Source: an uncultured Myxococcales bacterium
GTDB taxonomy: Bacteria > Myxococcota_A > Bradymonadia > REDH01
Direction of reading: 5' to 3'
DNA: 64,000 nt
Assembly: GCA_965367675.1 (NCBI GenBank)
Contig: CBDUJZ010000009.1
Coordinates: forward strand, 2,488 to 66,487
The notes under the pieces were generated by a model, which saw nothing but the letters and a program-made list of their open reading frames with translations, ran no database searches and was not told the DNA's origin. The position numbers and the translations under genes are program-made. This document shows positions 5,493-41,108 of this stretch, one piece after another (position 1 is the first letter of the stretch; every line of letters begins with the position of its first letter).

Positions 5493-5576
5493 CCCCGAGC
5501 AATTGGACGCGTTTGACATGCGATCTACCGGTGGTTCCGTCCGGATCGCGTGGTTCACCTCAAATGGGTTAGCTCT

Positions 5577-6098: not shown

Positions 6099-6464
6099 GG
6101 GCTACTCGGTAGGAGGGACTCCGCGATCGTAGCAACACGTGGAATTCGTGTCACGCCCTAGGTCGCGCCGGGCACAATACGCCGACGTCAGCGCGGCTGG
6201 GACGGAGCGCGCATGGTACCGGCTCGGGGGAGGGGGCCCGGGCGGGCGACGGCCGAGGCACAAATCCCGTGTTGTATTTGAATCGCGGGTTACGCTAGAC
6301 GGCCTTCATTCCCCGAGTTCGACGGAGATTGTCGCTTCGTACGTGCGTGAGTTCGCTCGCGTCGTGCCCGCGTACCGTCAGACCTTTGTCGTTTGAACCG
6401 CACTTCGAGCGGTGTTTGTGGCCGATCTCGTCCGCATTCGCCACTCCTGTACCCAAGAGCCGCC

Positions 6465-7205: not shown

Positions 7206-7243
7206 TCGGCGTCCGCCCCGTCGTTGTTGCGACGCTTGGTCCG

Positions 7244-7290: not shown

Positions 7291-8777
7291 CTACACGTCT
7301 GTGTCCGACGTGGGTTTCCGCTTGAGCCAGAGCCGGAAGCACGTGCCCGAGCGATCGGCGAGATTCACGTGCTCCAGCTCGCCGCCCATCGCTCGCGCGA
7401 CCTTTTTGGACACCGCGAGTCCCAAGCCGGTGCCCTTGATCTTGGTGGTGAAGAACGGCTCGAACATGCGCCTGCGGACGTCTTCCGGTAGGCCTGGGCC
7501 CGTATCGTAGACCTCGATGTACTCGGTGTTTGCGACGATCCGGAGCTCTCCCTCGCCCTGCATCGCTTGGCACGCGTTGATGGCGAGATTGACCAGCACT
7601 TGGCGCACCATCTCAGGATCGATGGCCATGTGCGGGTTTCCACGCACGCGCATGATCACGTTGGGGTAATCGATGCTCAGGCCGTCGAGGACTTCGCGGC
7701 ACAGCTCGGCGACGTCGATACCGCTCTCGCTGCGGAACTGGTTGGGGCGCGCGTACGCGAGCAGGTCGGTGACCAAGTTGTTGAGGCCGCGCACCTGCTT
7801 GAGCACGCGGTCGATGATGTTATGCAGCCGGTCTCCGCTGGTGAACTCGTTCTGGATGACCTGCAGCGCGCCGCTGATTCCAGCGAGCGGGTTGCGAAGC
7901 TCATGCGCCAGCGTGGCGGTCAGCGTGCCGATCTGCGCCAGGTGTTCGGCTTGCTGCGCGCGCCGTTCGGCTTCGACCGCTGCGGTGTGGTCTTGCACGT
8001 ACGCGATGAGGCCGGCCTCGGGCGCTTCGAGCGGTACCAGCGTGATCGAGACGTGCGCTGGCCGCCCGCCGATCGTGATGTCGACGCGCCGAATGCGCAG
8101 GCTCTCGCGGTCTTGAAGCGCCCGTTGGATGTGGTCCTCAAAGTCGGCGTCTTGGAACAGGCTCGGCGGGAGCACGTCCCGGTAGTGTGCCCCCACGGAG
8201 GAGCGGTGCCCAAACAGCCAGGCGGCCGCCGACGTGGACGAGATCACGTTGCCGTGTTCGTCGAGCAAGATGGCGGCGGCGGGCAGGTGGGCGATGAGCA
8301 GCATACGCGCATCACGGACCCGCTTTTGCGCCTCCACCGAGTGGTACGTGCTCGTCATGAGCCCGAGGTCGAGCATGGTGACCTTGCGGATCGCGTTCAC
8401 GGTGCTCGTCGGGTCCTCCGTCGCCGCGATCGCGATCTGAATCAGATCCTCCTGCATTGCCGACATCGCGAAGAACATGGCCGCGTGCGACACGCCGACG
8501 CGCACGTGGACATGGCCGATCCGCTGCCGTGCGTGGGTGTAGTCATCGTCCCACGGGCCGTTGAGCATGCTCTGGATCCAGCGCTTGAGCGTCTGCTTGA
8601 GTCGCTCCACCTGGACCGGGTCAGAGATGATCTCGCGGGTCGTCGGGTGCGCGAGCACCTTCTCGTAGAAGTGCTCGACCACCGGACCGAGTTCTGGCTC
8701 CACAAACGGCCACAGGCGCTGCAGCAGCGCTTTGTCTTCGGAGCTGAAATCTCCGTAGGAGCAGAACTCGTCGATGT

Positions 8778-8781
<4 letters not shown>
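7291..8781 (-). CDS. Globin-coupled sensor histidine kinase (sensor globin + PAS + HisKA + HATPase_c)
   Basis: N-terminal protoglobin/sensor-globin fold (LWPFVEPELGPVVEHFYEKVLAHPTTREII...ARQRIGHVHVRVGV), a PAS-like middle segment, an H-box (LAHELRNPLAGI) and N/G boxes (DTGPGLPED...GTGLGLAV). ATGA overlap with the upstream response regulator. Confidence 0.9.
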
Positions 8782-10139
<1,358 letters not shown>

Positions 10140-10284
10140 ATTGGGGGGTGTGCCGTACTAAACAGCGGGTGTGTGATTTCGCACGTGTCGGGGCCAAAGG
10201 CCAGACGGTGTGCGGGGGATGCCGCCCGGATGGGCGTTCTCACACGCTTAAAGAGCAAAGTGCGTGCCAGCCTTGGGGTAGGCG

Positions 10285-10422
10285 TCAGTTGTCATCGAGC
10301 GCCCGATAAGCGGCGTCCTCGATATCGTCGAATTGGCCGCCGCGGACGGCGCGAATGAACATGACGACGAAGAGCCCAGCCAAGCTCACCGAGAGTGGGA
10401 GCAGGATTATGAGGATGTCCAT
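10285..10422 (-). CDS. ccoS: cbb3 oxidase maturation protein CcoS/FixS
   Basis: 45 aa, MDILIILLPLSVSLAGLFVVMFIRAVRGGQFDDIEDAAYRALDDN, the classic CcoS motif. Start overlaps the ccoI stop. Only the 3' 138 nt of track ORF 10285..10872 are used. Confidence 0.8.
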   Translation of the reverse strand: MDILIILLPLSVSLAGLFVVMFIRAVRGGQFDDIEDAAYRALDDN

Positions 10423-27368: not shown

Positions 27369-29213
27369 CTAGTAGCTCTCGGGGGCGAAATCCATCTCGT
27401 CGCCGTCGGCTTCGTCGCTCCAGACGATCTCCTTCACGTCGACGTCGAACTCGCGTGAGCTGATCTTCTCAAGGAGCTCATCGCGGAGTTGCTCGAGCGT
27501 CATCTTGCCACGGTCGCCGTCGCGGTAGGTCCGCACGGAGAACACGCCTTCGTCGACTTCCTTTTGGCCCACGACGACCATGTACGGCGTCTTGGACAGC
27601 TCGGACTCGCGAATCTTGCGGCCGAGCTTCTCGGAGCGGTCGTCGAGCTCCACGCGGACGCCGGCGGCGCTGAGCACTGCGACGGCTTCTTTGCAGGCGT
27701 CGGCCAGCTCGTCGTTGATCGGGAGGAAGCGGACCTGCACCGGCGCGAGCCAGGTCGGGAACGCACCGGCCACGTGCTCGATGAGGATACCGATGAAGCG
27801 CTCCAGAGAGCCAAAGATGGCGCGGTGGACCACGATCGGGGTCTGCGGCGTGTTCTCAGCGTCGGTGTACGCGAGCTCGAAGCGGCGCGGGAGCTGGAAG
27901 TCCAACTGGATGGTCGGGCACTGCCAGCGGCGGCCGAGCGAGTCGACGACGTCGAAGTCGATCTTCGGGCCGTAGAACGCGCCGTCGCCCTCGTTGAGCG
28001 TGTACGGCAGGCCGTTCTCTTCGATGGCCGCGCGGAGCGACTCCTCGGCCTTGTCCCACAGCTCGGGCTCGCCCATGAAGTCGTCCGGACGGGTGGACAG
28101 CTTGACCTCGTACTTGAGGTCGAACAGCCCGTAGACGTACTCGATCATCTTGAGCACATCGCTGATCTCGGACTGGACCTGCTCCTCAGTGCAGAAGATG
28201 TGCGAGTCGTCCTGGGTGAACTGACGGACGCGGAAGCAACCGTTGAGCGTGCCGGACAGCTCGTTGCGGTGCAGCATCTGGAACTCAGCCACGCGGAGCG
28301 GGAGCTCGCGGTAGCTGTGCTTGCGCCGCTTGTAGAACATCATGGTGTCCGGGCAGTTCATGGGCTTCACGCAGAACGTGTCGCCCTCGGACTCCAGCTT
28401 GAACATGTGGTCGTGGTAGTGGTCCCAGTGCCCCGAAGTCTCGAACAAGCTCTTGTTGTACATGATCGGGTTGTGGATCTCGACGTACCCACGGTCGGCA
28501 TGCAGCTTCCGGCTCATCTCCTTGAGCGCGGAGTAGATCGCGTAGCCGTTGGGGTGCCAGAAGATGGCGCCGGGCGACTCCTTCTGGAACGAGAACAGGT
28601 CGAGTTCGCGGGCCAGCTTGCGGTGGTCGCGCTTCTTGGCCTCTTCGAGCACTTCGAGGTGCGCGGCCAGGTCGGTCTTGTTCTTCCAAGCCGTGCCGTA
28701 GATGCGCTGGAGCATCGGGCGGTCGGAGTCGCCGCGCCAGTACGCGCCGGCCACGTTGAGGAGCTTGAACGCCTTGCAGTTACCGGTGCGCGGCACGTGC
28801 GGGCCAGCGCAGAGGTCGGTGAACGGGCCATTCTTGAAGAAGCGGACCTCGGTCTCGCCTTTCTCCGCAAGGTCCCGAATCAGCTCGACTTTGTACGGCT
28901 GCTCCCGCTCTTCAAAGTAGGCGATCGCCTCTTCGATGGTGTGGGTCCAGGTCTCAAAGCGGTCGTTCGCCTTGATGTGCTTGGTCATCACCTTCTCGAT
29001 CATCTCCAGGTCGTCCGGAGTGAGCGTGCGGGGCAGCTCGAAGTCGTAGTAGAAGCCGTGCTCGATCGGCGGTCCGATCGCGAACTTCGCGTCCGGGAAC
29101 ACCTCTTGAACCGCCGTCGCCATCACGTGCGAGGCGGAGTGGCGGATGCGCCAGAGCTTCTCGGCATTCGAGAGCGGCTGGCGTGCGGGAGTGGCTTCTT
29201 GGGATTCGCTCAT
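27369..29213 (-). CDS. thrS: Threonine--tRNA ligase (ThrRS), lacking the N-terminal TGS domain, with an acidic C-terminal tail
   Basis: Editing-domain His motifs (HSASHVMA), class II synthetase motifs (FRVRQFTQDDSHIFC, RAIFGSLERF) and a C-terminal anticodon-binding domain. Confidence 0.92.
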   Translation of the reverse strand: MSESQEATPARQPLSNAEKLWRIRHSASHVMATAVQEVFPDAKFAIGPPIEHGFYYDFELPRTLTPDDLEMIEKVMTKHIKANDRFETWTHTIEEAIAYFEEREQPYKVELIRDLAEKGETEVRFFKNGPFTDLCAGPHVPRTGNCKAFKLLNVAGAYWRGDSDRPMLQRIYGTAWKNKTDLAAHLEVLEEAKKRDHRKLARELDLFSFQKESPGAIFWHPNGYAIYSALKEMSRKLHADRGYVEIHNPIMYNKSLFETSGHWDHYHDHMFKLESEGDTFCVKPMNCPDTMMFYKRRKHSYRELPLRVAEFQMLHRNELSGTLNGCFRVRQFTQDDSHIFCTEEQVQSEISDVLKMIEYVYGLFDLKYEVKLSTRPDDFMGEPELWDKAEESLRAAIEENGLPYTLNEGDGAFYGPKIDFDVVDSLGRRWQCPTIQLDFQLPRRFELAYTDAENTPQTPIVVHRAIFGSLERFIGILIEHVAGAFPTWLAPVQVRFLPINDELADACKEAVAVLSAAGVRVELDDRSEKLGRKIRESELSKTPYMVVVGQKEVDEGVFSVRTYRDGDRGKMTLEQLRDELLEKISSREFDVDVKEIVWSDEADGDEMDFAPESY

Positions 29214-29388
29214 CGGGGCTCCTATCGGTTGCCTCGGCCTTACGAATGGCCGAACCGGGGTAACGCTTCGGCCGTACGTTGGCCGAGCTTGTTAAGGCGC
29301 AGGACGCTAGTGAAGCGGGGAGGGCGACGCAACGACTATCGCGGCGACGGTCCAGGCGCGGGTCGTTGGACGCGCGCCGCCTTCGAAT

Positions 29389-30093
29389 TCAGCGTTTCGG
29401 GCCGCGCGGCGTGCCGTACAGTTTGGCGAGCGACGACGCTGGAACGCCGAGGCGGTAGAGCGTGGGGAAGACCGTCATGAGCAAGCCGTAGTAGAGTGGC
29501 CGTGCCTCGAATCGCCGGCCGGACACGTTCACGCAGGCGGCGACGGTTTGAATCCGCCCGAGCGCCCGCAGGCGTATGGCCAACTCCAGGTCCTCCATGA
29601 GCGGAATCTCGGGGAAGCCGCCGACCGCGCGGAAGGCGCTCGCGCGGACGAACACGGCCTGGTCGCCATACGGGAACCGTGAGTATCGCGAGCGGATGTC
29701 GGCGATGTGCAGCGCGGAGGCCATCCAGCGGCTTGGGCGCTCCGGCACCGTCCAGGTTCGAAACGCGCCGGCGACCAAGGAGGGGGCTGCGAGCGCGGTG
29801 CGAATCCAGCTGCAGGCGTCGGCCGGTAGGGTCACGTCGGCGTGCACGAACAGCAGCACGTCGCCGGTGGCGGCTTCGGCCCCACGGTTCATCTGCACGC
29901 CGCGACCGGCGGGGGAACTCAGCACGCGAACGCCGGCGTGGGCGTTGGCGATTGCGACGGTGTCATCCGAGCTCCCGCCGTCCACGACGATGATCTCGGA
30001 CAGCCCGGGCGCCGTGAGGAGCTGCCGCAGCGCATCGTCGATTCTTGCCGCTTCGTTGAGCGTTGGGACGATGGCGGAGACGGTGAAAGGCAT
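29389..30093 (-). CDS. Family 2 glycosyltransferase (Rv0696/TIGR04283-like)
   Basis: IVPTLNEA...IIVVDGGSSDDT...LFVHADVT, a GT-A fold with DxD-like motifs. Confidence 0.85.
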   Translation of the reverse strand: MPFTVSAIVPTLNEAARIDDALRQLLTAPGLSEIIVVDGGSSDDTVAIANAHAGVRVLSSPAGRGVQMNRGAEAATGDVLLFVHADVTLPADACSWIRTALAAPSLVAGAFRTWTVPERPSRWMASALHIADIRSRYSRFPYGDQAVFVRASAFRAVGGFPEIPLMEDLELAIRLRALGRIQTVAACVNVSGRRFEARPLYYGLLMTVFPTLYRLGVPASSLAKLYGTPRGPKR

Positions 30094-30097
30094 ACGT

Positions 30098-30952
30098 CTA
30101 CGGTCGGTCTAGCGGCGTCGTGTCCGTGGGCGCGGTATCCGCCGGAATGGTGTCCAGCGGCGGCGACTCAAGCAGCGCCGTGTCGAGCAGGGCGTCGGCC
30201 TCACGCGTCGACAAGTTGTCTCGCCCGTGCAGGTTCACCGGCGTTGCGCTCGCTCGGCGCACGCGCAGGTTGAGGCCCTCGACACAGAACGAGAACGCCA
30301 TCGCGAAGTACACGTAACCCTTGGGGATGTGCTGGTGCATCGCGTCCGCAATGAGCACCACGCCGATCAGCACCAAGAACGAGAGCGCGAGCATCTTGAT
30401 GGTCGGGTGGTTCTCCACAAAGTCGCCGATCGGTTTCGCCGCCACCAACATGACGCCCATCGCGATGACGATCGCGAGCACCATCACGGGCAGGTGGTCT
30501 GCGAGGCCGAGCGCGGTGATGACCGAGTCGAGCGAAAACACGATGTCGAGCAGGCCGATCTGAATGACCACGGACATCATGGTCGCGGAGCCGTCCACGT
30601 TGGCGGTGTGGTCTGCGCCTTCGAGGCTGTGATGTATCTCGGTGGTGCTCTTGCCGAGCAGGAACAGACCGCCGAACAGCAGGATGAGGTCACGCCCGGA
30701 GACGCCATGATCGCCGATCGAGAAGAGTGGGTCGGTGAGCCCCATGAGCATGCTCAGCGAGCCGAGCAGCAACAGGCGCGTGATGAGCGCAAGGCCGAGC
30801 CCGAGCGACCGACCTCGTGCGCGCTCCTCTTCGGGCAGGCGCCCCGTGAGGATGGAGATGAAGATGATGTTGTCGATCCCGAGGACGATCTCGAGAACGG
30901 TGAGGGTGGCTAGCGCGAGCCAAGCTTCGGGGCTGTAAATCCACTCAAGCAT
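30098..30952 (-). CDS. TerC-family integral membrane protein (YkoY/Alx-like)
   Basis: TerC signature (LEIVLGIDNIIFISIL...LSLDSVITALGL). Polytopic. Confidence 0.88.
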   Translation of the reverse strand: MLEWIYSPEAWLALATLTVLEIVLGIDNIIFISILTGRLPEEERARGRSLGLGLALITRLLLLGSLSMLMGLTDPLFSIGDHGVSGRDLILLFGGLFLLGKSTTEIHHSLEGADHTANVDGSATMMSVVIQIGLLDIVFSLDSVITALGLADHLPVMVLAIVIAMGVMLVAAKPIGDFVENHPTIKMLALSFLVLIGVVLIADAMHQHIPKGYVYFAMAFSFCVEGLNLRVRRASATPVNLHGRDNLSTREADALLDTALLESPPLDTIPADTAPTDTTPLDRP

Positions 30953-30958
30953 GAATGC

Positions 30959-33346
30959 CTATTCGGGCGCCTGGTCGGTCATGACGAACGTCAAGGTGCC
31001 GCCAGCTGTGATGTCGTTGTGTTCGATGAAGGGGGTCTCGAGCGGGACGCCGTTGAGCGACACCGATTCGACGTAGACCGCCTCTGGGCTGTTGTTGACG
31101 GCTTCGATGACGAACGTGCCGTCGGACTGGAACTCGGGGTTGAGCACCCACTCGACGCGGTCGAGCAGCGGGCTGCTGAGCGTGTAGCTCGTGCCGCCGG
31201 GCGCGACGGGATAGAAGCCGGCGGCGGCGAGGACGAACCAAGCGGAGGTGGAGCCAGCGTCGTCGTTCCCAGGCAGTCCGCGCCGTCCCAGGCCGTAGGC
31301 TTCGTCCATCACGCGGCGCGTGGTGGCCTGCGTCAGGTCCGGCCGACCGGCGTGTGCGTACAAGAACGGGATGTGGAAGCTCGGCTGGTTCGTCGGGTCG
31401 TACTGGCCGTTGGAGAAGAACGTGTCGAGCTGGGCGATGAACGCCTCCTCGCCTCCGTGAATGTCGATGAGCGCGGGCACGTCGTGGGGCACGAAGAACT
31501 TAAAGATCCAAGCCGAGGCCTCCACGAAGTCGTTGTCGTCGGAGGTGTCTGTGGGGTCGAAGGGCGTCATCCAGCTGCCGTCGCGCAGTCGGCCGCGCGG
31601 GAAGCCGGTCTCTGAGTCCCAGTTTGCCCGCCAGGACTCCGCGCGGGCCATGTAGGTGGCCGCCAGCTCGGTCTCGCCGAGCGTCTCGGCCATCTGCGCC
31701 AGCGCCCAGTCGGCGTACGCGACCTCCATCGTGATGGACGCGTTCTGCGTGGGGTCGCACTCGCGCGGCACGTAACCCAGGCTCATGTACTCCGGCGGAG
31801 TGCCGAGCCCGAAGTACCCGCACGCGCCGTTCGGCGACGAGTTGCTGTCCTCCTCGGAAGTGCGTCGAACGGCCGCGAGCGCGTCGTCCATGTCGAAGCC
31901 ATCGAAGCCCTTAACCACGGCGTCGGCCACGATCGCGACCTGCGGGTTTCCAGTCATAACGCGCGAATAGCCGCCGGCCGCCCAGGGGCACTTGGGCATC
32001 CACCCGCCGGTGCGGTACGCGTGCAGCATCGAGAACACGACGTCGTCGATGATCTCGGGCTCGGCGATGGTCCGGAACGGGTGGCTGGTGCGGTACGTGT
32101 CCCACAGGCACCAGTCATCCGTGTAGTAACGTCGGCCCTCGGGCAGCGGATACTCCGTGGCGACGCCGTCCCACGCGCTCACAAACATGCCGTCTTCGGA
32201 GTAGTCCGCGGGCTGAAACATGGTGTGGTACAGCGCGGTGTAGAAGCGCCGGAGGTCGTCCTCTTCACCCTCCGCTCGCACGCGGTTCAAGCGCGTATTC
32301 CAGGTGGACTCGGCCTCGGCGCGGGCGTCGTCAAAGTCTACCGGCTGCGCGTCGCGGTGCGCGGCGGCGTTGTCGGTGTCGCGCAAGCTCAGGCCCACGC
32401 GAACGGTGAGTACGTCCACGTCGTCGCCAAACTGCATGCCCGCGTGCACGCGCGCGCCGCTGAACGGCATCGCTTCGGGTTCTCGGCTTCCCTGCCACGC
32501 GCCCGTACCGGTGGGCGCGACGCTCGTCGACATTGCCCAATAGACGGTGAGCTCGCCGGTCCCGGGCTGTCCGGCCAACGTGCCGATGAGCGGGTGGACT
32601 TGGTAGTAGCCGAGGCCGCGCCAGTCGGTGTCGGACACCTCGGTGACTTCGCCGCGCAGGGCCGTGCCGCGGCTCTCTTCGAGGTTCAACTCGAGCGCGC
32701 GTGGGGCGTCGCCCTCAAACGTGTAGCGGTGGACGGCACCCCAACGGCTGGCGGTGACCTCGACGCGCGTCTCGTCCGCGGTGATGGCGTAGTAGCCCGG
32801 CGCGGCCTCCTCAGTGGAGCGGTCGAGCGCCGCCGGCGGCTGCGCGGAGATCTCGTCGAGTGCCACGCGGACGGGGCGGACCAGAACATGACCGTAGCCG
32901 TTCCGCAGGCCGCCGGCGCCCTCAAGGTGCATGTGCGCGATGCCAAAGAACTCATCGTCGTCGTGGTGGTACGCGTCGATGTCGCCGGTGCCGCTGTTGG
33001 TGACGGGGCTTGCCCGCACCACGCCGTGGGGGACCAAGGCGCCGGGGATCACATGGCCGAGCCCTTCGGTGCCCACGAACGGGTCCACGTACTGCGTGAG
33101 CGCCATTTCGGGCGGCGGCTCCCACGTCGACACGTCGTCCGTGTCCGGCATCGCGTCGGCGTCCACTGCCGCCGTGTCACCCGCTGCGGTGTCACTCGCC
33201 ACGTCAGCCGTGACGTCGGCGGTCGGCGTGTCCGCGGCATCGCGCGCGTCCGTCTCCGCCTCTGCGCCGTCGCATCCACTGGCGGCGCCGAGAGCGGCGG
33301 TGAGGAGGGCGAATCGAAGAACAGCGCGAGGAGCGGAGGCGGTCAT
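30959..33346 (-). CDS. GH92-family alpha-mannosidase-like lipoprotein
   Basis: 795 aa with a lipobox (LGAASGC) and an acidic linker. Size and conserved blocks (GGWMPKCPWAAGGYSRVMTGNPQVAIVADAVVKG...GNDDAGSTSAWFVL) match the GH92 alpha-1,2-mannosidase family. Confidence 0.8.
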   Translation of the reverse strand: MTASAPRAVLRFALLTAALGAASGCDGAEAETDARDAADTPTADVTADVASDTAAGDTAAVDADAMPDTDDVSTWEPPPEMALTQYVDPFVGTEGLGHVIPGALVPHGVVRASPVTNSGTGDIDAYHHDDDEFFGIAHMHLEGAGGLRNGYGHVLVRPVRVALDEISAQPPAALDRSTEEAAPGYYAITADETRVEVTASRWGAVHRYTFEGDAPRALELNLEESRGTALRGEVTEVSDTDWRGLGYYQVHPLIGTLAGQPGTGELTVYWAMSTSVAPTGTGAWQGSREPEAMPFSGARVHAGMQFGDDVDVLTVRVGLSLRDTDNAAAHRDAQPVDFDDARAEAESTWNTRLNRVRAEGEEDDLRRFYTALYHTMFQPADYSEDGMFVSAWDGVATEYPLPEGRRYYTDDWCLWDTYRTSHPFRTIAEPEIIDDVVFSMLHAYRTGGWMPKCPWAAGGYSRVMTGNPQVAIVADAVVKGFDGFDMDDALAAVRRTSEEDSNSSPNGACGYFGLGTPPEYMSLGYVPRECDPTQNASITMEVAYADWALAQMAETLGETELAATYMARAESWRANWDSETGFPRGRLRDGSWMTPFDPTDTSDDNDFVEASAWIFKFFVPHDVPALIDIHGGEEAFIAQLDTFFSNGQYDPTNQPSFHIPFLYAHAGRPDLTQATTRRVMDEAYGLGRRGLPGNDDAGSTSAWFVLAAAGFYPVAPGGTSYTLSSPLLDRVEWVLNPEFQSDGTFVIEAVNNSPEAVYVESVSLNGVPLETPFIEHNDITAGGTLTFVMTDQAPE

Positions 33347-34470
33347 GGCGTAGGCGTTGGGCGGGTGAGTAAGGGGCGGACGGCGTCAGCGATCGCGTCG
33401 CCGATGATGCGATGTCCAAGCGGGTTCGGGTGCGCCAGATCATGCTTCTGTTCCGGCTTCTGAATCTCGATGGCTTCCATGCCGGCGAAGGCGTCCGCGA
33501 CCCGAATGGCGGGCAATCCAGCGGCCTGCGCGGTGTTCACAACCTGGTCGTAAATCGCCGTGCAGTGCGGGTGGTCGAATCTCTCCACGATGGGGAGGAC
33601 GGCGACCAACGTTTGGAATCCGTGGATCTGCTGCAGCAGCGCGAGGCGCTCGAACGAGTTCTGGACGATGATGCCGTAGGTGTACGTCTCAAAGAACGGC
33701 GCGAACGCGCTGCAGAAGCCCTCGCCGCGTGCGAGCGCGATGAGTGGAATGAAGCGGAACGCAAAGTGGCTGTTGCCGATGCGCCCGCGGCCGCCGTTCT
33801 GGAACGACGCGGCGGTGAGCATGAACGCGACCACCACCACGTCCGGTTCGTACGCGAGCCCGACCTGCTCCAAGAACCGCACCTGCTGCAGTGTGCTGAA
33901 GCCCTCGCAGGACACGTTCACGACTTCGACGCGCTTGCCGGGAACGGCGGTCTGTAGCTGTCGCTCCATCTGGCGGAAGAACCGCTCTTCGAAGGGGATG
34001 GCGTTGTCGTTGGCGATGGAGCCCGTGAGCACGACCACGCGCAGGACGTCCGCCGGCTTGGGCATCTCTCGCTGCACGTCGAGCAGGCCGTCGGGCGTGA
34101 CGACCACGCCGTCGCTGTCGAAGCCTGGTGCGTAGTGGTAGCGCAGGATGGGGTCGTCGACCTGAACCACGCGGCTGCTGGTGTCCGAGAACACGCCGGA
34201 CCGGAGTTCGAGCAGCAGGACGGCGACCACAAACACCAGCGCGACGACACGCAGCACGGCTCTCAACCGCGCCCAGGGAAGGGGCATGGTGAGCGCGAAG
34301 GTGGCGATAAGGCCGATGCTCAGCCAGCGGAACGGGTCCGGCAGGAAGAACTCAGGGTCGGTGAACGCGCGGGCGATGATCTCGGTGGCGCCGAGGACGA
34401 TCAGCAGGGCGATGAACATGGGCGCGGAGAGCGTCCACGCTTTGCTGGGCGTCGAACGGTCGCTGGTCAT
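33343..34470 (-). CDS. Membrane-anchored SGNH/GDSL-family hydrolase
   Basis: Two or three N-terminal transmembrane helices, then an SGNH-like domain (VVVLTGSIANDN block; DLAHPNPLGHRIIGDAIA C-terminal block). ATGA overlap with GH92. Confidence 0.7.
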   Translation of the reverse strand: MTSDRSTPSKAWTLSAPMFIALLIVLGATEIIARAFTDPEFFLPDPFRWLSIGLIATFALTMPLPWARLRAVLRVVALVFVVAVLLLELRSGVFSDTSSRVVQVDDPILRYHYAPGFDSDGVVVTPDGLLDVQREMPKPADVLRVVVLTGSIANDNAIPFEERFFRQMERQLQTAVPGKRVEVVNVSCEGFSTLQQVRFLEQVGLAYEPDVVVVAFMLTAASFQNGGRGRIGNSHFAFRFIPLIALARGEGFCSAFAPFFETYTYGIIVQNSFERLALLQQIHGFQTLVAVLPIVERFDHPHCTAIYDQVVNTAQAAGLPAIRVADAFAGMEAIEIQKPEQKHDLAHPNPLGHRIIGDAIADAVRPLLTRPTPTP

Positions 34471-34519
34471 TGCTTCCCTTATAGGTCACTTCTGTTGGCG
34501 CCGCGTCGTCGCGGTCAGC

Positions 34520-34711
34520 CTAGAACAGCGAGTAGACGAAGGGTGCAAGTGGGGCAATCGTGTTGATGACCCAGAGCAGCGCTGCGAGCAGCAGGAGCAC
34601 GCCGAACACGGGGATGAGGACACCCAGCTTGTGATGCAGCAGGACCGAGAAGGTCCGCGTGATGGTGTGGTAGACGGTGCTGATGCCTGAGAATTTGGGG
34701 CGGCCGCTCAT
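34520..34711 (-). CDS. DUF5989-family small membrane protein (SxtK-like)
   Basis: 63 aa, MSGRPKFSGISTVYHTITRTFSVLLHHKLGVLIPVFGVLLLLAALLWVI... Its ATG overlaps the carbamoyltransferase stop (ATGA). Confidence 0.6.
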   Translation of the reverse strand: MSGRPKFSGISTVYHTITRTFSVLLHHKLGVLIPVFGVLLLLAALLWVINTIAPLAPFVYSLF

Positions 34712-36525
34712 TGTTTCCACACGATGGTATTGTTGAGCACGAGCGCGTCCATCGCGGTCCGGGCGTACATGGAGAGCGCCTCGACCGGGGTAGAGACGAT
34801 CGGGTATCCGCTCGGGTTGAACGATGTGTTGACGATAACCTCGAGGCCCGTGTGCTTGCCGACCGCTTCGATGAGCGCGTGGTAGCGGGGGTTGTCCGCG
34901 GGGAACACGACCTGGGGTCGGGTGGTGCCATCGTAGTGGATGGCAGCGCGGACCTTGTCGCGGACTTCGGGCTTCACCGGCACGGCGTACTGCATCCAAC
35001 GCTGGAAGCGCAGGTGGTCCGCAGGGACGTCGAGTGCGTTGTGCGCGTCTTTCTCGGTGATCGAGAAGGCGTAGGGTCGGAAGAGGGCGCGGTCCTTAAC
35101 GGCCTTGCTGAGCTTGTTGGCGAGCTCAAGGTCGTCGGGGCGAATGAGGATGGAGCGGTTGCCGAGCGCGCGCGGGCCGATCTCGGCGCGTCCTTGGTAC
35201 CAGCCGATGATTTGGCCAGCGGCGATGCGCTCGGCGACTTCGGCGACGAGCGCTTCGTCGGACTCGAACTTCTTATGCTCCCACTTGATCCCGGGACCTT
35301 GCTCGTGGCCTCGCTTGAGGTACTCGAGGCTGTGGTCGGGATCGATGAACGGGAGCATCTCGATGGTCTCGTCCTCGCTGAACTCGGCGCCCATGTACGC
35401 GGGGTAGCGCATGACTTCGGGCGCGCAGTCGCTGTGGGTGGCGGCGTACACGAGGGCGGTGCCCACGCTGGTGCCGCCGTCGCCGGGATCGGGCGGGATG
35501 TACATGTTCTTGTACAGGCCGGACGCCAGGATTTTGTAGTTCGCGACGCAGTTCAGGCTCACGCCGCCGGCGTAGCAGAGGTTCTCGGAGTCGACTTTGC
35601 TGCGCAGCTGCTCGGTGAGCTGAACGATGCGTTCTTCGAGGACCACCTGGATGCTGGCGGCGACGTCGGCGTAGCGCTGCGACTCGGCGTCGAAGGTCTG
35701 CTCGCCGTCGAACAGGGAGCTGTGCGGCAGCTTGGTGTTGATCTGTCGCGCGGGGCCGAACTCCTTGATGAACTTGTCGGAGACGGCGCCGCTGTAGAAC
35801 TTGGAGAAGTGGAAGTAGTCCTGGTCGACGGAGTACGTGCCGTCCTCGCCTTCTGCGATGATGGCGCGGACCTTGTCGGCGTAGATGGGCTTGCCGAAGC
35901 CGGCGAGCGCCATGGTGCTGGCCTCGCTGTCGTTGGGCGAGAAGCCGAGGTACGCGGTGAACGCGGAGTACACGAGTCCGAGCGAGTTCGGGAACGCGAT
36001 CTCGGACACGCGGCTGACCACGGGCTTGCCGTCGATCCACTCGCCTTTGTAGAGCGCCGAGCAGGCCCAGTCGCCCACGGCGTCGACGACGAGGATGCCG
36101 GCGTCGCTGTAGCCGGAGCCCATGAACGCTTGCACGCCGTGGCTAAAGTGGTGGCTCAGGTAGCTGATCTTCTTGGGGTCGACGTCGAGTCGCGCCGAGA
36201 TGGTGCCGATGGACCAGAGCTTCTTGCCGAGCCACGCCTTCATGGCGTTCACGAACTCTTTGCGAGAGCCGGGGAACGAGGCCAGGGCGGACGTGAGCAC
36301 GCGCGAGAACTTGGCGTGCGGGTCCTCGTGGAACACGATCTGGTCGATATCGGCCGCCGTGATGCCGGCCTGCGCGAGGCAGAACTCGACCGAGTACGCG
36401 GGGAAGTTCGCGTCGTGCTTTTGGCGCGTGAATCGCTCTTCTGCCGAGGCAGCCGCGACGCGTCCGTCGATGACCAAACACGCGGAGGCGTCGTGGTAGC
36501 CGTAGGAGAGACCGAGTACTTTCAT
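34708..36525 (-). CDS. NodU/CmcH-family carbamoyltransferase
   Basis: N-terminal MKVLGLSYGYHDASACLVIDGRVAAASAEERFTRQKHDANFP (YrdC/Kae1-like carbamoyltransferase fold) and a C-terminal domain. Its ATG overlaps the upstream ferritin-like gene stop (ATGA). Confidence 0.9.
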   Translation of the reverse strand: MKVLGLSYGYHDASACLVIDGRVAAASAEERFTRQKHDANFPAYSVEFCLAQAGITAADIDQIVFHEDPHAKFSRVLTSALASFPGSRKEFVNAMKAWLGKKLWSIGTISARLDVDPKKISYLSHHFSHGVQAFMGSGYSDAGILVVDAVGDWACSALYKGEWIDGKPVVSRVSEIAFPNSLGLVYSAFTAYLGFSPNDSEASTMALAGFGKPIYADKVRAIIAEGEDGTYSVDQDYFHFSKFYSGAVSDKFIKEFGPARQINTKLPHSSLFDGEQTFDAESQRYADVAASIQVVLEERIVQLTEQLRSKVDSENLCYAGGVSLNCVANYKILASGLYKNMYIPPDPGDGGTSVGTALVYAATHSDCAPEVMRYPAYMGAEFSEDETIEMLPFIDPDHSLEYLKRGHEQGPGIKWEHKKFESDEALVAEVAERIAAGQIIGWYQGRAEIGPRALGNRSILIRPDDLELANKLSKAVKDRALFRPYAFSITEKDAHNALDVPADHLRFQRWMQYAVPVKPEVRDKVRAAIHYDGTTRPQVVFPADNPRYHALIEAVGKHTGLEVIVNTSFNPSGYPIVSTPVEALSMYARTAMDALVLNNTIVWKQ

Positions 36526-37217
36526 GCGGCGAACTGCTTGACGCTGTTGTTGTCGTATTCGACGTATCGGGTTTCCATCCTGCGGCGCGCCGCCAGGAAG
36601 ACCCACGGGGCGAGCACGAAGTAGGCGACGCTGAGCAGCCCGGTCGCGACGGTGTCGACCACCCGCTTTCCGTTGCGCAACCACGCTTCCCAAGCGCGCA
36701 CGATGCGCACGCGGCGATACTCGGATTTCATTTCGTTGGGCTGTGCGCCCAAGTCACGAAGCAGGTGTTCCGTCGAGTCGACGTGGCCCTCTTCGTCTTC
36801 CACGATCTTGGCGAGCGAGCGCTGCAGCGGCTCGTCCCCCAACGAGCTGGCGATGTACGCGAAGCGCTCGGTGGCGTCTTCTTCGCCCACGTGAACGTAC
36901 GCCAGCGCCTTCCAGATCGGGACACCCGCCTTCGCCAAGTCCTCGCGCTCGTACGTCGCCGGCGGGAGCTTGTGGTCCGTGTACAGCTGATAGGTGTACG
37001 CGAACTCTTCGGCGTGCGACTCCTCTTCGAGGCTGTGTGTGAACAGCAGCGCTCGAATCTTCGGGTCGTCGATGCGCGCGATGCTGCGGTGGAGGTGCCA
37101 AACACCGTCCGCCTCAGTCGCCTGGAACCCACGAATCGCCGTCGCTTTCGCGCCCGGCAGCTTCCAGCCCAAACGGACCGCAAAGGTCACGCGAAGCTTC
37201 TCGATCAATCCAGGCAT
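36522..37217 (-). CDS. Ferritin-like di-iron carboxylate protein with a C-terminal transmembrane anchor
   Basis: Four-helix ExxH pattern (E...H, EEESHAEE, E, EDEEGHV) and a C-terminal hydrophobic helix (LLSVAYFVLAPWVFLAA). First gene of the coupled operon. Confidence 0.65.
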   Translation of the reverse strand: MPGLIEKLRVTFAVRLGWKLPGAKATAIRGFQATEADGVWHLHRSIARIDDPKIRALLFTHSLEEESHAEEFAYTYQLYTDHKLPPATYEREDLAKAGVPIWKALAYVHVGEEDATERFAYIASSLGDEPLQRSLAKIVEDEEGHVDSTEHLLRDLGAQPNEMKSEYRRVRIVRAWEAWLRNGKRVVDTVATGLLSVAYFVLAPWVFLAARRRMETRYVEYDNNSVKQFAA

Positions 37218-37248
37218 ATGCGTTGCAACTCGTTTGGTGGGGGGACCA

Positions 37249-37270
37249 GTACGGTACGCGAATACCGTAC
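37249..37270. promoter_or_regulatory. Inverted repeat GTACGGTA-N6-TACCGTAC, with ACACCGGTGT palindrome at about 37275-37284
   Basis: Sits 32 bp upstream of the ferritin-like gene start, in the divergent region shared with the CopZ-like gene. Confidence 0.3.
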
Positions 37271-37453
37271 AACGACACCGGTGTGTGTCAAGTGAGAGTG
37301 GTTTTCATTTGAGCCGATCACGCACGGAATTCGCGCGCTTCAGCGGGTGCGCACGTCGGGGTGGCCTTCCGTTGTCGACCGCGCGTACACACGACCCCTC
37401 CGCGCGACGTTTTGCCGCGCCCGCTTTACTCCGACGCTCACCCGGAACACCCC

Positions 37454-37666
37454 ATGACCTCACCGCTCTCGACCCACCGCTTGACCGTACGCGGCATGAC
37501 CTGCGGCCACTGCGAAGCCTCCGTCCGAACGGCGCTCGAACAGCTCCCTGACGCGTCAGACATCGTCGTCGATCGGCAGCAAGATACCGCGTCTGTCTCC
37601 ACCTCGGCCAGCCTGACCGATGCGGTCGCCGCGGTGAACGCGATCGGTTTCGAGGCCTCGGCCTAG
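37454..37666 (+). CDS. Heavy-metal-associated (HMA) domain protein, CopZ-like copper chaperone
   Basis: 70 aa carrying the GMTCGHC metal-binding motif. Confidence 0.8.
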   Translation: MTSPLSTHRLTVRGMTCGHCEASVRTALEQLPDASDIVVDRQQDTASVSTSASLTDAVAAVNAIGFEASA

Positions 37667-37673
37667 ATCGGCG

Positions 37674-38972
37674 CTAGAGCTTGGGGATGACCTTCGCGAT
37701 CGTTCGCGAGAGGTTGAGCCACCAGAGCGACTCGACGGCGATTAGGGGCTTGCCGTTGTTGAGCAGCGCGACGCTGATGTCACGCTCGGGATCGGCGTAG
37801 ATCAGGATGTTCGTGAACCCGATGTGGCCGAACGCGTCCGGGGTGTCGGGGCCGATGACCGAGCTGTGGTCGCTGCCGAGCATGAAGCCGAGGCCGTAGC
37901 GGAACGGGTACTGCAGGACGCCGTCGTACTCGTGGTAGTTCTGCTCAAGGCGCGCGCGCTTGACGCTGCGCTCGGAGAACACGCGCGTGCCGTTGTATTC
38001 GCCGCCGCGCAGCAGACACTCGAAGTATCGGCCGGCCTCTTCGGCGGTGCCGCAGATGTTGCCGGAGGGGACGACGGAGTGCAGGAACCGGGGGTCGTTC
38101 GCCAGGTTCACGATGGTCTGCATATCGCCGCCGAACGCTTTGCGGACGAGCCGAGACAGGGGGAACACGGCCGGGGGCCCGGTCCATACATCGCGGGCGA
38201 TTTCGCCGATGTCTTCGGGCGGGATGCCGTAGGCGAACGAGCGCATTCCGAGCGGCTGGCGGATGGTCTCGTTGTGGTACGTCTGAATGTCCTTGCCGGT
38301 CACGCGGCGGACGATTTCGCCGAGGATAAAGCCGCCCGTGATGGCGTGGTACGCCAGCTTGCGGCCGGGTACGGAGGCGGGCTCCGCGTTGTACAGATAG
38401 TTGAGCACCGCGGACGCGTCGCCGAGCGCGTCGAGGTCGAAATGCTCGGCGTCGATGAGCGGCAGGCCGGCCCGGTGGTTGAGCACGTGGCGGATGGTGA
38501 TCCGCTCTTTGCCGTTGGCGCCGAACTCGGGGATGTACTCACAGACCGCGTCGTCGATGTGCAGCTTTCCGCACTCGTCGAGGTGGTGGATGAGCATGGC
38601 GGTGACGGACTTGGACGCGGAGAACAGGTTGTAGACCGTGTCCGGCGTGGCGAGGCGGAGCTCGTCGTCGTCGATGCCGGCGGTCGTGTTTCCGCGCGCG
38701 TGGCCGATGGCGCGGTCGAGGACCTTGGCGCCGTTTCGCCGGATGCACAGGCTGACGGAGGGTTGCAGGCCGGTCTTGTAGTACCGAACCGCGGCGTCCC
38801 AGATGGCGTCGATCTGCGCCGTCTCAAGCCCGCCTGCTGAGGCCGGTGCCTCGTCTTCGGCGATGGTGGTGACGTCCTCTGCGGCGAAGACGCGGACACG
38901 ATTGGGGCGAGCGAGTGACGAGATTCGTTGGAACATGTTTCGCTGGCTATCGCAAACGCGAAGCGTCGTCAT
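37674..38972 (-). CDS. Beta-lactamase-family serine hydrolase (class C / esterase-like)
   Basis: SxxK active site (FSASKSV) and YxN-like downstream motifs. Start ATG overlaps the upstream gene stop (TGATG); an ATG 12 codons downstream is an alternative. Confidence 0.8.
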   Translation of the reverse strand: MTTLRVCDSQRNMFQRISSLARPNRVRVFAAEDVTTIAEDEAPASAGGLETAQIDAIWDAAVRYYKTGLQPSVSLCIRRNGAKVLDRAIGHARGNTTAGIDDDELRLATPDTVYNLFSASKSVTAMLIHHLDECGKLHIDDAVCEYIPEFGANGKERITIRHVLNHRAGLPLIDAEHFDLDALGDASAVLNYLYNAEPASVPGRKLAYHAITGGFILGEIVRRVTGKDIQTYHNETIRQPLGMRSFAYGIPPEDIGEIARDVWTGPPAVFPLSRLVRKAFGGDMQTIVNLANDPRFLHSVVPSGNICGTAEEAGRYFECLLRGGEYNGTRVFSERSVKRARLEQNYHEYDGVLQYPFRYGLGFMLGSDHSSVIGPDTPDAFGHIGFTNILIYADPERDISVALLNNGKPLIAVESLWWLNLSRTIAKVIPKL

Positions 38973-40156
38973 CAATTTAGCTCGTTCGAAGTGTGGGAAG
39001 CGGTACGGAGCGTGAGCGCGGTGACTTCGGTGGGGGCGCCGAGTCGCATTGGCGGGCCCCAGGTTGCGCTTCCGCAGCTGACGTAAATCCACGTGCGATC
39101 GCGGTGCTTCGCGAGGCCTTTGGAGTATGGGTTGAAGAAGCCGACGAGCCACGTCCACGGCACGAACTGGCCGCCGTGGGTGTGGCCGGAGAGTTGCAGG
39201 TCGGCGCCAGCGTCGGTGGCGGCGTCGATGAGCGCGGGCTGGTGGGCGAGCAGCAGCCGGAAGTCAGCGTCGGCGGTGTTGGCGAGCGCCGTGGCCGGGT
39301 CGGAGGCGTCGGCGGGTACGAACTGGCCGGCGCTGGTGTCCGAAATTCCGGCGACCACGAGCGTGGCGTCGCCCACCTGCACGCGGTCGTGCTCGTTGGA
39401 GAGCACGCGCAAGCCGAGGCGCTCAACCTCGCGCTCCCACGGCTTGGCGTTGGAGTAGTACTCGTGGTTTCCGGTCACAAAGAAGGCGCCGTCGCGGGCC
39501 TTGAGGCGGGCGATGGGGGCCACTTCGTCGCGCAGCGCGGCCACGCTGCCGTCGACCAAGTCACCGACGAACGCGAACATGTCGGCGTTCAGAGACAGCG
39601 CGATGTCGACGACCTGCTCAAACTCGCGGCGGCGCGTCGGAGCGCCGATGTGGACGTCCGAGAGCATGACGATCCGGTAGCCGTCGAGGTCGGGATGAAG
39701 GTCGGGGACCGGGATGTCGACTTCGATGATCTTCGCCTTGCGCAGGCCTCCGAGGAGGGCGGCTGCGGCGGTTCCGAGGCCGAGCGCGAAGCCGGCGAGC
39801 ACCACCCAGCGGGCATATTCGGGTGTGGAGACCCAGCCGACGATCGCGCTGATCGGGTGCGAGACGAGCACCGCCATGAACACCACGGACGCGCTGCCGG
39901 CGTAGGCAAGTACGGGCGTGCGAAGGCCGCGAACGAGCGGGTGGCCGGCCATGCGCGCGATGAGCACAAAGAGCAGCAAGACCGTTGAGACGAGCAGCGC
40001 GACGGGTACCACGGGGATGGCGAGGTCGGTCCGGTCGAGCGCCCACAGGGCCAGGCCGATCAAATAGAGGTGCGCCGCCGTCCACATCGTCATGATGCCG
40101 GCGATGAACTTGAGCATGCGGCGGATGGGCGGCGCTGCGGAATCGGATTCGGTCAT
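38972..40156 (-). CDS. Membrane-bound calcineurin-like metallophosphoesterase (YkuE-like)
   Basis: Four N-terminal transmembrane helices, then MLSDVHIG...FVGDLVD...TGNHEY...GHTHGGQ phosphoesterase motifs. Confidence 0.85.
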   Translation of the reverse strand: MTESDSAAPPIRRMLKFIAGIMTMWTAAHLYLIGLALWALDRTDLAIPVVPVALLVSTVLLLFVLIARMAGHPLVRGLRTPVLAYAGSASVVFMAVLVSHPISAIVGWVSTPEYARWVVLAGFALGLGTAAAALLGGLRKAKIIEVDIPVPDLHPDLDGYRIVMLSDVHIGAPTRRREFEQVVDIALSLNADMFAFVGDLVDGSVAALRDEVAPIARLKARDGAFFVTGNHEYYSNAKPWEREVERLGLRVLSNEHDRVQVGDATLVVAGISDTSAGQFVPADASDPATALANTADADFRLLLAHQPALIDAATDAGADLQLSGHTHGGQFVPWTWLVGFFNPYSKGLAKHRDRTWIYVSCGSATWGPPMRLGAPTEVTALTLRTASHTSNELN

Positions 40157-40244
40157 TGGCGCTCGGTGAGGGCGTGGCGGTCAGGCCTGCGTGGGAAACG
40201 TGTGGTAGCGGATTTGCGTCCGGCTGCGCGGCCGCGGGAGCGGG

Positions 40245-41108
40245 TCAGTCCGCGTCCAGGTGGCGGCGGACGGCGGCAATAAACGCGTCGGGGCATTCGC
40301 GGTGAATGAAGTGGCCGGCGGGCAGGGCGACGTGTGCGTCCGCGGGAAGGGTGCGCGCGGCGTGCGCCATCACCGATTGGCCCATGCAGCCGTCTTCGAG
40401 GCCCGAGATGAGCATCAGCGGGGCTTGGATTGGGCCGAGGGCCGCGCGCCGCGTGGCGTGGTCGCGGGCGATGGCGCGGGGCAGGGCGCGGTAGTATCCG
40501 AGGGCGGCGCGGAGTGACCCGGGGGCTCGGTACGCGCGCTTCACCGGCTCCAGGTCGTCGGCGGTGAACGACCAGCTGGGGGACCACCGGCGCCACAGCT
40601 GCTCGACGGGTTGAAAGTCGTTGCGGGCGAGCGCGGCCTCGGCGATCCGAGGGGCCTGAAACGCGGCCATGTAGGCGCTGCGCCAAAGCTGTTTGGGGTC
40701 TCGCGCGCCGAGCACACTCGCGGGCGGCGGGACGGCGGCGAGCACGACGCGTCGAATGCGGTCGGGGAACAGGGCTGCGGCGGTGTAGGCGGCTACGGCG
40801 CCCCAGTCGTGCCCGACGACGTCGACGGATTCAGCCTCGAGTTGGTCCGCGAACGCGACCACGTCTTCGGCGAGCGCGCGGACGTCGAAACGGCCGTTCG
40901 CGGGCACCGATGATGGGGCGATGCCGCGCATGAACGGCGCCGCCACGTAGCGTCCGTCGTTGGCGAGCGCCGCGCGCAGGTCGTCGAACGTGTGGGCCGT
41001 GTCCGGGAACCCGTGGAGCAGCAGCGTGGGCCGTCCGGTGGGCGGTCCGCTGACGCGCGCGGCGCAGCGCCAGTCGGGCAGTTCCCACGTGAGGGTGTCG
41101 TTGGGCAT
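40245..41108 (-). CDS. Alpha/beta-fold hydrolase
   Basis: HGFPD oxyanion region and the nucleophile elbow GHDWG. Start at an internal ATG (MPNDTLTWELP...). Confidence 0.8.
   Translation of the reverse strand: MPNDTLTWELPDWRCAARVSGPPTGRPTLLLHGFPDTAHTFDDLRAALANDGRYVAAPFMRGIAPSSVPANGRFDVRALAEDVVAFADQLEAESVDVVGHDWGAVAAYTAAALFPDRIRRVVLAAVPPPASVLGARDPKQLWRSAYMAAFQAPRIAEAALARNDFQPVEQLWRRWSPSWSFTADDLEPVKRAYRAPGSLRAALGYYRALPRAIARDHATRRAALGPIQAPLMLISGLEDGCMGQSVMAHAARTLPADAHVALPAGHFIHRECPDAFIAAVRRHLDAD

Follow-up and report, generated by a model that had tools for sequence, protein, structure and literature searches.

We analyse here a stretch of 64,000 nucleotides of contig CBDUJZ010000009.1, from an uncultured Myxococcales bacterium (hereafter the window), and within it a run of minus-strand genes built around an O-carbamoyltransferase. 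The genes are labelled A (ferritin-like), B (carbamoyltransferase), C (DUF5989) and D (SGNH), followed by E (GH92), F (TerC) and G (GT2). The first four are the subject of this study, and they are as follows.

36522-37217, minus strand: gene A, a ferritin-like di-iron carboxylate protein of 231 residues
34708-36525, minus strand: gene B, a NodU/CmcH/TobZ-type O-carbamoyltransferase of 605 residues, counted from the ATG at 36525
34520-34711, minus strand: gene C, a DUF5989 (SxtK-like) single-pass membrane protein of 63 residues
33343-34470, minus strand: gene D, 375 residues, with three predicted N-terminal transmembrane helices and an SGNH hydrolase domain

The open reading frames (ORFs) match exactly the four genes given in an original prediction, and the four families named there hold, with the Pfam scores of A and D lying below threshold. 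The codon-position G+C content of A, B, C and D (0.84-0.90 at the third position and 0.39-0.43 at the second) is that expected of real genes at the 66% G+C of the genome; an antisense ORF of 637 residues across gene B (34711-36624) has the inverted pattern and is therefore an artefact. Junctions of the ATGA or near-zero type had been predicted throughout. Read from the sequence, the A/B junction gccgcATGAaag and the B/C junction aaacaATGAgcg are both 4-nucleotide ATGA overlaps, but C and D are separated by a gap of 49 nucleotides, in which AAGGGAAG sits 5 nucleotides ahead of the ATG of D. The translational coupling proposed for the genes stands.

Based on an alignment of 23 A sequences, one genome per GTDB species was scanned, giving 25 loci, and the six-frame ORFs of these loci were searched with ten window proteins. 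The loci come from Myxococcota (Polyangia, Byssovorax, Labilithrix and others), Oligoflexia and Halobacteriovoraceae. In all 25, A is directly followed by B, and because this adjacency recurs in every one of these independent loci, the gene linkage is far beyond chance. Of the 23 loci in which the contig extends past B, 22 have C behind it (the exception is L021), and the A-B-C junctions in the GTDB species loci are overlapping or abutting. D adjoins A-B-C in 11 of the 25 loci, in three arrangements (D-A-B-C, A-B-C-D, and A-B-C with a convergent D), and SGNH proteins of other subfamilies stand beside A-B-C in L028, L021 and L038. Overall, the conserved core is the three genes A-B-C, with D as a frequent accessory partner; the predicted co-conservation of four genes is borne out for the first three and only in part for the fourth. 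Outside this set, three distant A homologues are each followed by a carbamoyltransferase and DUF5989 with overlapping junctions: one on a Sphingobium plasmid (L035; 29% identity, hhalign probability 98.7%), P0394 in L036, which is fused to a PEMT/ICMT-like domain, and P0353 in L038. Other genes of the window, namely those for GH92, TerC, GT2, CopZ, the LipE-like beta-lactamase-fold esterase and the metallophosphoesterase, were considered as conserved partners and rejected, as none of them recurs in the 25 related loci.

One metagenome-assembled genome of Byssovorax (JBDTXR010000054.1, L023) holds A-B-C twice in tandem, at 3440-7207 and 8575-12795, about 5.6 kb apart. B and C score identically in the two copies, which are due to a recent duplication or else to a repeat in the assembly; only one copy is present in the related L022.

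Gene B consists of a Kae1-like domain (Carbam_trans_N, PF02543, E 2.9e-64, 218.1 bits against a cut-off of 24) and a YrdC-like domain (Carbam_trans_C, PF16861, E 1.7e-55, 187.6 bits against a cut-off of 27), both above the Pfam cut-offs. Its solved relatives in a phmmer search are 7xb6 (5e-72), TobZ (5e-69), NovN (2e-68) and GdmN (3e-62), with 207-247 bits over about 600 residues. The motifs aligned between B and TobZ, HD, HHxxH, VDxxG, GDxG, GPRALGxRS, RPxA, TxRPQ and NTSFN, are read in B as YHDAS, HHFSH, VDAVGD, PGDGGTS, GPRALGNRS, FRPYA, TTRPQ and NTSFN; their residues we take to be ligands of metal, nucleotide and carbamoyl phosphate as in TobZ, with the metal presumably bound in the Kae1-like domain. 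With TobZ, NovN, GdmN, CmcH and NodU, B shares the two-domain architecture and the motif segments (phmmer 1e-60 to 1e-72); those proteins, however, are soluble antibiotic or Nod-factor tailoring enzymes without DUF5989, SxtJ or ferritin-like partners. Since B has no transmembrane segment and needs ATP and carbamoyl phosphate, it should be cytoplasmic. In a neighbour-joining tree of 35 carbamoyltransferases, built without bootstrap, the A-linked B proteins form one clade (44-78% identity to the B of the window) and those linked to SxtJ or PhyH another (37-39%). The A-linked B on the Sphingobium plasmid, with 40% identity, falls outside the A-linked clade, in an ambiguous placement in this tree. 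In L028, a second, divergent carbamoyltransferase paralogue (7876-9876, minus strand, 35% identity to the B of the window) lies back to back with the A-B-C-SGNH set.

Gene C scores 30.1 bits against the DUF5989 model (PF19451, cut-off 27, E 5.1e-07). It has a basic N-terminus, which by hydropathy and charge would lie inside, one transmembrane helix and an invariant C-terminal motif, APLAPFVYSLF-COOH, and the end APF[VI]Y[STA][LI]F-COOH is common to the DUF5989 proteins of loci with A and of loci with SxtJ. All the marks of a DUF5989/SxtK-like protein are found in C: a length of about 50-70 residues, a single transmembrane helix, the APFxYxxF end and a neighbouring carbamoyltransferase. A homologue search with the DUF5989 alignment returned close relatives only, and a full-text literature search for DUF5989 found no paper.

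Gene A shows the four-helix bundle and the E, ExxH, E, ExxH ligand set that define the ferritin-like superfamily. The ExxH residues had been predicted to be conserved; in fact all six di-iron ligands (E35, E65xxH68, E112, E142xxH145) are invariant in the 23 aligned homologues, whose identities are 49-77%. The only Pfam or NCBIfam signals of A are Rubrerythrin (PF02915, 21.5 against a cut-off of 22.8), Ferritin (PF00210, 19.5 against 24.5) and encapsulin-ferritin, each below threshold, and among 120 listed A homologues none has a precomputed Pfam domain; for these reasons we treat A as a separate family in the ferritin-like superfamily. By profile search among 1.84 billion cluster representatives the family has 372 clusters at 50% identity, 233 of them at E <=1e-10, nearly all with 200-250 residues and matching across the C-terminal hydrophobic helix, which in A covers residues 186-208 and is followed by a conserved tail. 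A is rare on plasmids (1 of 72,556), compared with B-like genes in 488. The structure model of A (pLDDT 84.5) gives its longest structural alignments, 157-172 residues, with aldehyde-deformylating oxygenase (ADO), a MiaE-annotated entry, CADD and a PaaA-like protein, while the alignments with ferritin, bacterioferritin and Dps cover 127-145 residues. The model resembles the di-iron oxygenases that act on substrates. Its identity to such oxygenases (ADO, MiaE, COQ7, PaaA) is 11-14%, and A differs from them in its C-terminal membrane helix and its obligate linkage to a carbamoyltransferase. When the sequence of A was searched against solved structures, the only matches were to designed helical bundles and, marginally, to bacterioferritin, and none to a natural protein was significant. 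A defines a new family of di-iron proteins whose enzymatic partner is fixed, and its ligands, fold and gene context suggest hydroxylase activity.

Homology of the whole of A to SxtJ was rejected (probability 0.2%). The tail profile of A, made from 253 sequences over residues 172-205 (an amphipathic and a hydrophobic helix), nevertheless aligns to SxtJ positions 64-98 over 34 columns, with an hhalign E of 1.2e-4 and a probability of 54.6%, against E >=0.04 in all controls (reversed SxtJ, other transmembrane alignments and 30 column shuffles). We regard this as a lead, not as proof, that A may keep an SxtJ-like docking segment.

Several proteins related to A, or seemingly so, deserve mention. 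P0394 (L036, 8001-9305) has the A homologue fused behind a multi-pass membrane domain like that of the PEMT/ICMT lipid methyltransferases, which argues that the di-iron domain of A is cytoplasmic. Behind this fusion gene come genes for a carbamoyltransferase, DUF5989 and an SGNH-like protein, in a cluster that holds MBOAT, radical SAM, SPASM, methyltransferase, GT28-like and YdjC genes. P0324 (847 residues, from a JGI metagenome, on a single contig of 4.9 kb) has A and B in one frame with a 12-residue linker, RPKKGGGEKSWI, which resembles a translated ribosome-binding-site region; the fusion may be real, or a stop codon may have been lost. P0396 (1142 residues, with 17 repeats of about 60 residues containing RIILFTHCT) reaches E 1e-25 with the A profile through a short LFTHSLEEE region and was taken as a repeat-driven false positive.

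Gene D scores below threshold for Lipase_GDSL_2 (23.8 against 32.9), and a precomputed PF13472 match exists for most of its 83 homologues. S151 of block I and D344 and H347 of the block V Asp-x-x-His are invariant in 24 sequences, with most members of the family having (T/G)GS instead of GDS in block I. The structure model (pLDDT 89.4) confirms the SGNH fold with an intact Ser-Asp-His triad, and its closest structural match is CgnD of crocagin, a carbamoylated peptide, at 12% identity, with no match between the two found at the sequence level. The charge pattern and hydropathy of D fit an N-terminus inside, three transmembrane helices and a C-terminus outside, so the SGNH domain is probably periplasmic; three conserved cysteines are consistent with this. 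Orthology among the SGNH proteins associated with carbamoyltransferases is not established by hhalign of the D profile, which finds only weak block-level matches to the SGNH partners of other loci (E 0.005-0.57). In L017 (14651-16366) and L019 (13806-15500), proteins of about 570 residues near A-B-C have transmembrane segments and a C-terminal DMRHPSLIGH like SGNH block V; they show no clear nucleophile Ser motif and may be degenerate SGNH relatives.

In the saxitoxin gene table, sxtI (carbamoyltransferase), sxtJ, sxtK and sxtL (a GDSL lipase, proposed to be a decarbamoylase) are consecutive (PMC2679770), and in the sxt cluster of Lyngbya wollei, in which sxtI is truncated, sxtL is also absent (PMC3037375, PMC2679770). 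The proposed link to sxtI-J-K stands, and the parallel with sxtL, which is the strongest, had been missed: both clusters pair a NodU/CmcH-type carbamoyltransferase with a tiny membrane protein and a GDSL/SGNH hydrolase, D lying 49 nucleotides downstream of C. The match of D with SxtL is at the superfamily level only. Unlike the saxitoxin cluster, the window has no saxitoxin core genes and no SxtJ, its host is a Myxococcota-type bacterium, and A, upstream of the carbamoyltransferase, stands in the place of SxtJ. A hidden Markov model made from four SxtJ (PF19588) sequences finds none in the window or in the 25 loci with A, and the 49-nucleotide gap leaves no room for one between C and D. By analogy with the synteny of annotated SxtJ-DUF5989 pairs, SxtK appears to be a DUF5989 member; a 2025 review describes SxtJ and SxtK only as 'in conjunction' with SxtI (PMC12300590).

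Loci with an annotated SxtJ are found elsewhere: SGNH, SxtJ, DUF5989 and carbamoyltransferase on pMSC49c of Methylosinus sp. C49; SxtJ, carbamoyltransferase and SGNH on a Rhodobacteraceae plasmid (annotation and Pfam); an SxtJ-like protein, DUF5989 and carbamoyltransferase on pSymB of Sinorhizobium meliloti; and, in Paludisphaera borealis PALBO1, carbamoyltransferase, SxtJ, DUF5989 and a sugar O-acetyltransferase in a polysaccharide cluster with exosortase, EpsI and tyrosine kinase. In Pantoea, the carbamoyltransferase stands between a PhyH dioxygenase and an SGNH protein. The annotated SxtJ-type loci are like the window in having a carbamoyltransferase with 37-39% identity to B, a DUF5989 with APFxYxxF, and often an SGNH/GDSL protein of about 370-425 residues; they differ in that SxtJ is present, the ferritin-like protein is absent and the carbamoyltransferases form a separate neighbour-joining clade. 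Judged from these sequence comparisons, B-C-D belongs to a type of module already known, though uncharacterised; what is new is that A occupies the place of SxtJ. Literature searches for an O-carbamoyltransferase with a ferritin-like or di-iron protein found nothing, and those for the SxtJ family with exopolysaccharide gave irrelevant papers only.

One SxtJ-type locus, L032, was considered for a protein of 393 residues in the position of A, and this was rejected as an A homologue and has no family match. The same locus holds PhyH and Rieske oxygenases beside a related carbamoyltransferase, which is followed by a 196-residue call (9146-9736) with a DUF5989 match; as the same ORF region matches the SxtJ model (E 5e-6), it may be a DUF5989-SxtJ fusion.

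Besides the saxitoxin-like loci, two other kinds of system bear comparison. In crocagin biosynthesis of Chondromyces crocatus, hydroxylation by CgnC precedes carbamoylation by CgnI (PMC10070186). CgnC is, however, a 2-oxoglutarate/Fe dioxygenase, whereas A is a di-iron protein; the soluble CgnD has the task of cleaving a leader peptide, and the pathway needs a precursor and the binding proteins CgnB/E, which are absent here. The O-acetylation systems (AT3-SGNH in OatA and OafA; MBOAT with SGNH in PatA/PatB and AlgI/J/X) offer an analogy only, as the module of the window has no AT3 or MBOAT channel and its donor would be carbamoyl-AMP, not acetyl-CoA.

The surroundings of the four genes in the window are listed below.

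30959-33346, minus strand: gene E, a GH92 glycoside hydrolase with a lipoprotein-like N-terminus (Glyco_hydro_92 5.5e-145; NCBIfam TIGR01180 1.3e-137)
30098-30952, minus strand: gene F, a TerC-family membrane protein (TerC 7.6e-45)
29389-30093, minus strand: gene G, a GT2 glycosyltransferase of the TIGR04283 type (3.7e-63, above the TIGR04283 cut-off)
37454-37666, divergent from A: a CopZ-like HMA gene
37249-37291, minus strand: a putative promoter and operator, from sequence reading

The operon had been taken to comprise four genes. A to D are indeed co-directional, but the stop of D overlaps the start of the GH92 gene in an ATGA (33343-33346), and TerC and then GT2 lie behind GH92 after gaps of 6 and 4 nucleotides, so that the co-directional array here has seven genes and ends 175 nucleotides short of thrS. 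The transcription unit in this genome probably runs on through GH92, TerC and GT2, a tight coupling to the carbamoylation module that is seen only in this genome and its near-identical contigs. Upstream of A we read by eye a TTGACA (37291-37286) and a TACGGT (37269-37264) with a 16-nucleotide spacer; a consensus promoter scan found nothing upstream of A, and the promoter assignment is our own reading. The two palindromes predicted between A and the divergent CopZ-like gene are present. The shorter, ACACCGGTGT (37284-37275), lies inside the spacer, and the longer, a perfect inverted repeat GTACGGTA-N6-TACCGTAC (37270-37249), overlaps the TACGGT of the putative -10 element and occurs once in the window against 0.05 expected by chance. 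As conserved operators the palindromes were rejected, with no similar inverted repeat upstream of A in the other loci; because of this lack of conservation, the longer repeat probably serves as an operator in this lineage only, and the CopZ gene may share it. Terminator-like sites from the consensus scan are no commoner than in shuffled sequence, and an Rfam scan of 28000-41000 gave a single sub-threshold match to mir-138 (E 0.17), taken as chance.

Within 10 kb of the operon lie rpsO, DUF2330, a tricorn-like protein, MazG, peptidase C15, hydrolases, CopZ, GH92, TerC, GT2, thrS and DUF547. No biosynthetic gene cluster is recognisable around the operon, and core biosynthetic genes (polyketide synthase, non-ribosomal peptide synthetase, peptide precursor or maturase, terpene synthase) are absent from this range, as judged without a dedicated cluster-finding tool. 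Just past the divergent CopZ gene, a metallophosphoesterase (37674-38972, minus strand, LpxG/YaeI-like, with N-terminal transmembrane helices) and the LipE-like beta-lactamase-fold esterase (38972-40156, minus strand) overlap by 1 base and have the look of another translationally coupled pair, one that hints at lipids or the envelope.

How might these proteins work together? The pathway originally proposed, with hydroxylation and carbamoylation of a membrane-associated molecule, is still the best reading, the activity of A and the substrate being what we infer. In the form we favour, which we rate just short of an even chance, the genes encode a membrane-tethered module, including a periplasmic esterase, for hydroxylation and O-carbamoylation of an acceptor that is hydrophobic or linked to a lipid. 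From the chemistry of TobZ, NovN and GdmN, B would convert carbamoyl phosphate and ATP in the cytoplasm into carbamoyl-AMP, and would pass the carbamoyl group onto a hydroxyl of the acceptor. C and the hydrophobic C-terminal segment of A would tether B to the inner membrane. The di-iron domain of A would be an O2-dependent oxygenase acting on the substrate of B, most likely installing the hydroxyl that B uses, as its ligands, fold and context suggest. Where D is present, its periplasmic SGNH domain may edit the exported product by hydrolysing an ester or a carbamate, as proposed for SxtL. The oxygenase role of A is argued, indirectly, by unrelated oxygenases adjoining related carbamoyltransferases: PhyH, CgnC, and JmjC/cupin_8, a gene of which lies near the module in 8 loci with A. 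We lean towards a membrane lipid, a polyprenyl-linked glycan or another hydrophobic metabolite as the acceptor, over a soluble antibiotic, because of the membrane segments of A, C and D, the PEMT/ICMT fusion, and the lipid-type neighbours in other genomes, where MBOAT, a GT28-like transferase, LPG_synthase_TM, PMT_2 and a polyprenyl synthase-radical SAM fusion are found. In this genome, a weak hint of a mannose-containing glycoconjugate comes from GH92 and GT2, which are probably co-transcribed with the module.

Several points weigh against this pathway. D is absent from about half of the loci. The contexts vary, from housekeeping genes here to radical-SAM-rich clusters elsewhere, and the substrate may differ by lineage. 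The neighbourhood holds no conserved reductase or ferredoxin that could partner A. The topology of A, C and D is predicted from hydropathy and the positive-inside rule only. The A-B fusion of P0324, if real, contradicts the idea that a helix of A spans the membrane, but a stop-codon error may account for the fusion. Finally, no product is known for any module of the SxtJ/SxtK type (PMC12300590).

Among the alternatives, the one that survives best, though we think it unlikely, is that the module serves a cell-surface polysaccharide (exopolysaccharide, lipopolysaccharide or capsule), with B acting on an undecaprenyl-linked unit at the inner leaflet and D as a periplasmic carbohydrate esterase. 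As sugars already have hydroxyls, A would then have another redox or regulatory role. Sugars are carbamoylated by NodU, NolO and TobZ, the SxtJ-type module of Paludisphaera stands inside an exosortase, EpsI and tyrosine-kinase cluster beside a sugar O-acetyltransferase, and the operon in the window runs on into GH92, TerC and GT2. These last three genes, however, have no linkage to A-B-C in the 25 other loci, no Wzx, Wzy or initiating-transferase genes are found nearby, and a strictly co-inherited di-iron protein is left without a clear role.

We consider it distinctly unlikely that the module tailors a peptide natural product, in which A would hydroxylate a residue, B would carbamoylate it, and D would be a CgnD-like peptidase or esterase releasing or maturing the product. 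Many related loci are rich in radical SAM, SPASM, B12-radical-SAM, JmjC/cupin_8, HxsD and peptidase C39 genes, as such a role would suggest; the window has no precursor-like small ORF, radical SAM or peptide-binding gene near the operon. The structural likeness of D to CgnD comes with 12% identity and no sequence-level match, and D is membrane-anchored and probably periplasmic whereas CgnD is soluble and intracellular. The membrane segments in A, C and D suit a membrane substrate better, and the DUF5989/SxtJ partners also occur in a polysaccharide cluster and in the cluster of saxitoxin, which is not a peptide.

To a similar degree we doubt that A is not an oxygenase at all, but an SxtJ-like anchor joined to a ferritin/rubrerythrin-like domain that senses iron or oxygen, or detoxifies peroxide, and so regulates or protects B. 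This would agree with the family signals of A, which are only the sub-threshold Rubrerythrin, Ferritin and encapsulin-ferritin, with the resemblance of its membrane segment to SxtJ, with the lack of a conserved reductase partner, and with metal binding by B itself in the Kae1-like domain, which we assume from TobZ. It has to face the longest structural alignments of A (157-172 residues) being to substrate-acting enzymes, compared with 127-145 for ferritin, bacterioferritin and Dps, and non-homologous oxygenases occupying the equivalent position beside related carbamoyltransferases; a single-copy, membrane-tethered A also fits poorly with ferritin cage assembly.

Very doubtful, in our view, is a stronger version of the favoured pathway, in which A-B-C-D would be one trans-membrane machine of Myxococcota and Bdellovibrionota whose product is a new carbamoylated molecule, either an envelope lipid or linked to a lipid. 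A would hydroxylate a membrane-embedded substrate, B would carbamoylate the new hydroxyl at the cytoplasmic face, and the conserved, putatively periplasmic tails of A (VEYDNNxLK) and C (APFVYSLF) would couple the step of B to the periplasmic SGNH domain. In its extreme form, the carbamoyl group would be relayed across the membrane to the SGNH serine and from there to an extracytoplasmic acceptor, like acetyl in OatA and PatA/PatB. Incidental adjacency of four unrelated genes packed in a compact genome is wildly improbable: short overlaps are common in high-GC bacteria and the operon overlaps the non-conserved GH92 too, but chance is excluded by the conservation of A-B-C across loci (A-B in 25/25, C in 22/23, in two or more phyla, plus the three very distant A homologues), while D is kept through three rearrangements and the A-linked B proteins cluster together.

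Carbamoyltransferases with SxtJ and SxtK/DUF5989 have been known since the saxitoxin cluster and are widespread, for example on plasmids of Sinorhizobium, Methylosinus and planctomycetes. The locus described here defines a sister version, in which a membrane-anchored di-iron protein, from a family of about 370 clusters that has no Pfam model, stands in for SxtJ. A adds a second predicted chemistry, oxygen activation, and implies an order of steps, first hydroxylation and then carbamoylation, and the short membrane segment common to A and SxtJ is a likely docking element. For genetics, Sphingobium sp. TomTYG65 offers a cultured, plasmid-borne example (pTomTYG65a, positions 153611-157303). If the four proteins do form one trans-membrane machine, in either form, the SxtJ/SxtK class would gain its first function. 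Should the product be a glycoconjugate or envelope lipid, the module would represent a new surface modification in predatory and social bacteria; should it be otherwise, A still stands as a new and well-supported protein family whose functional partner is firm.

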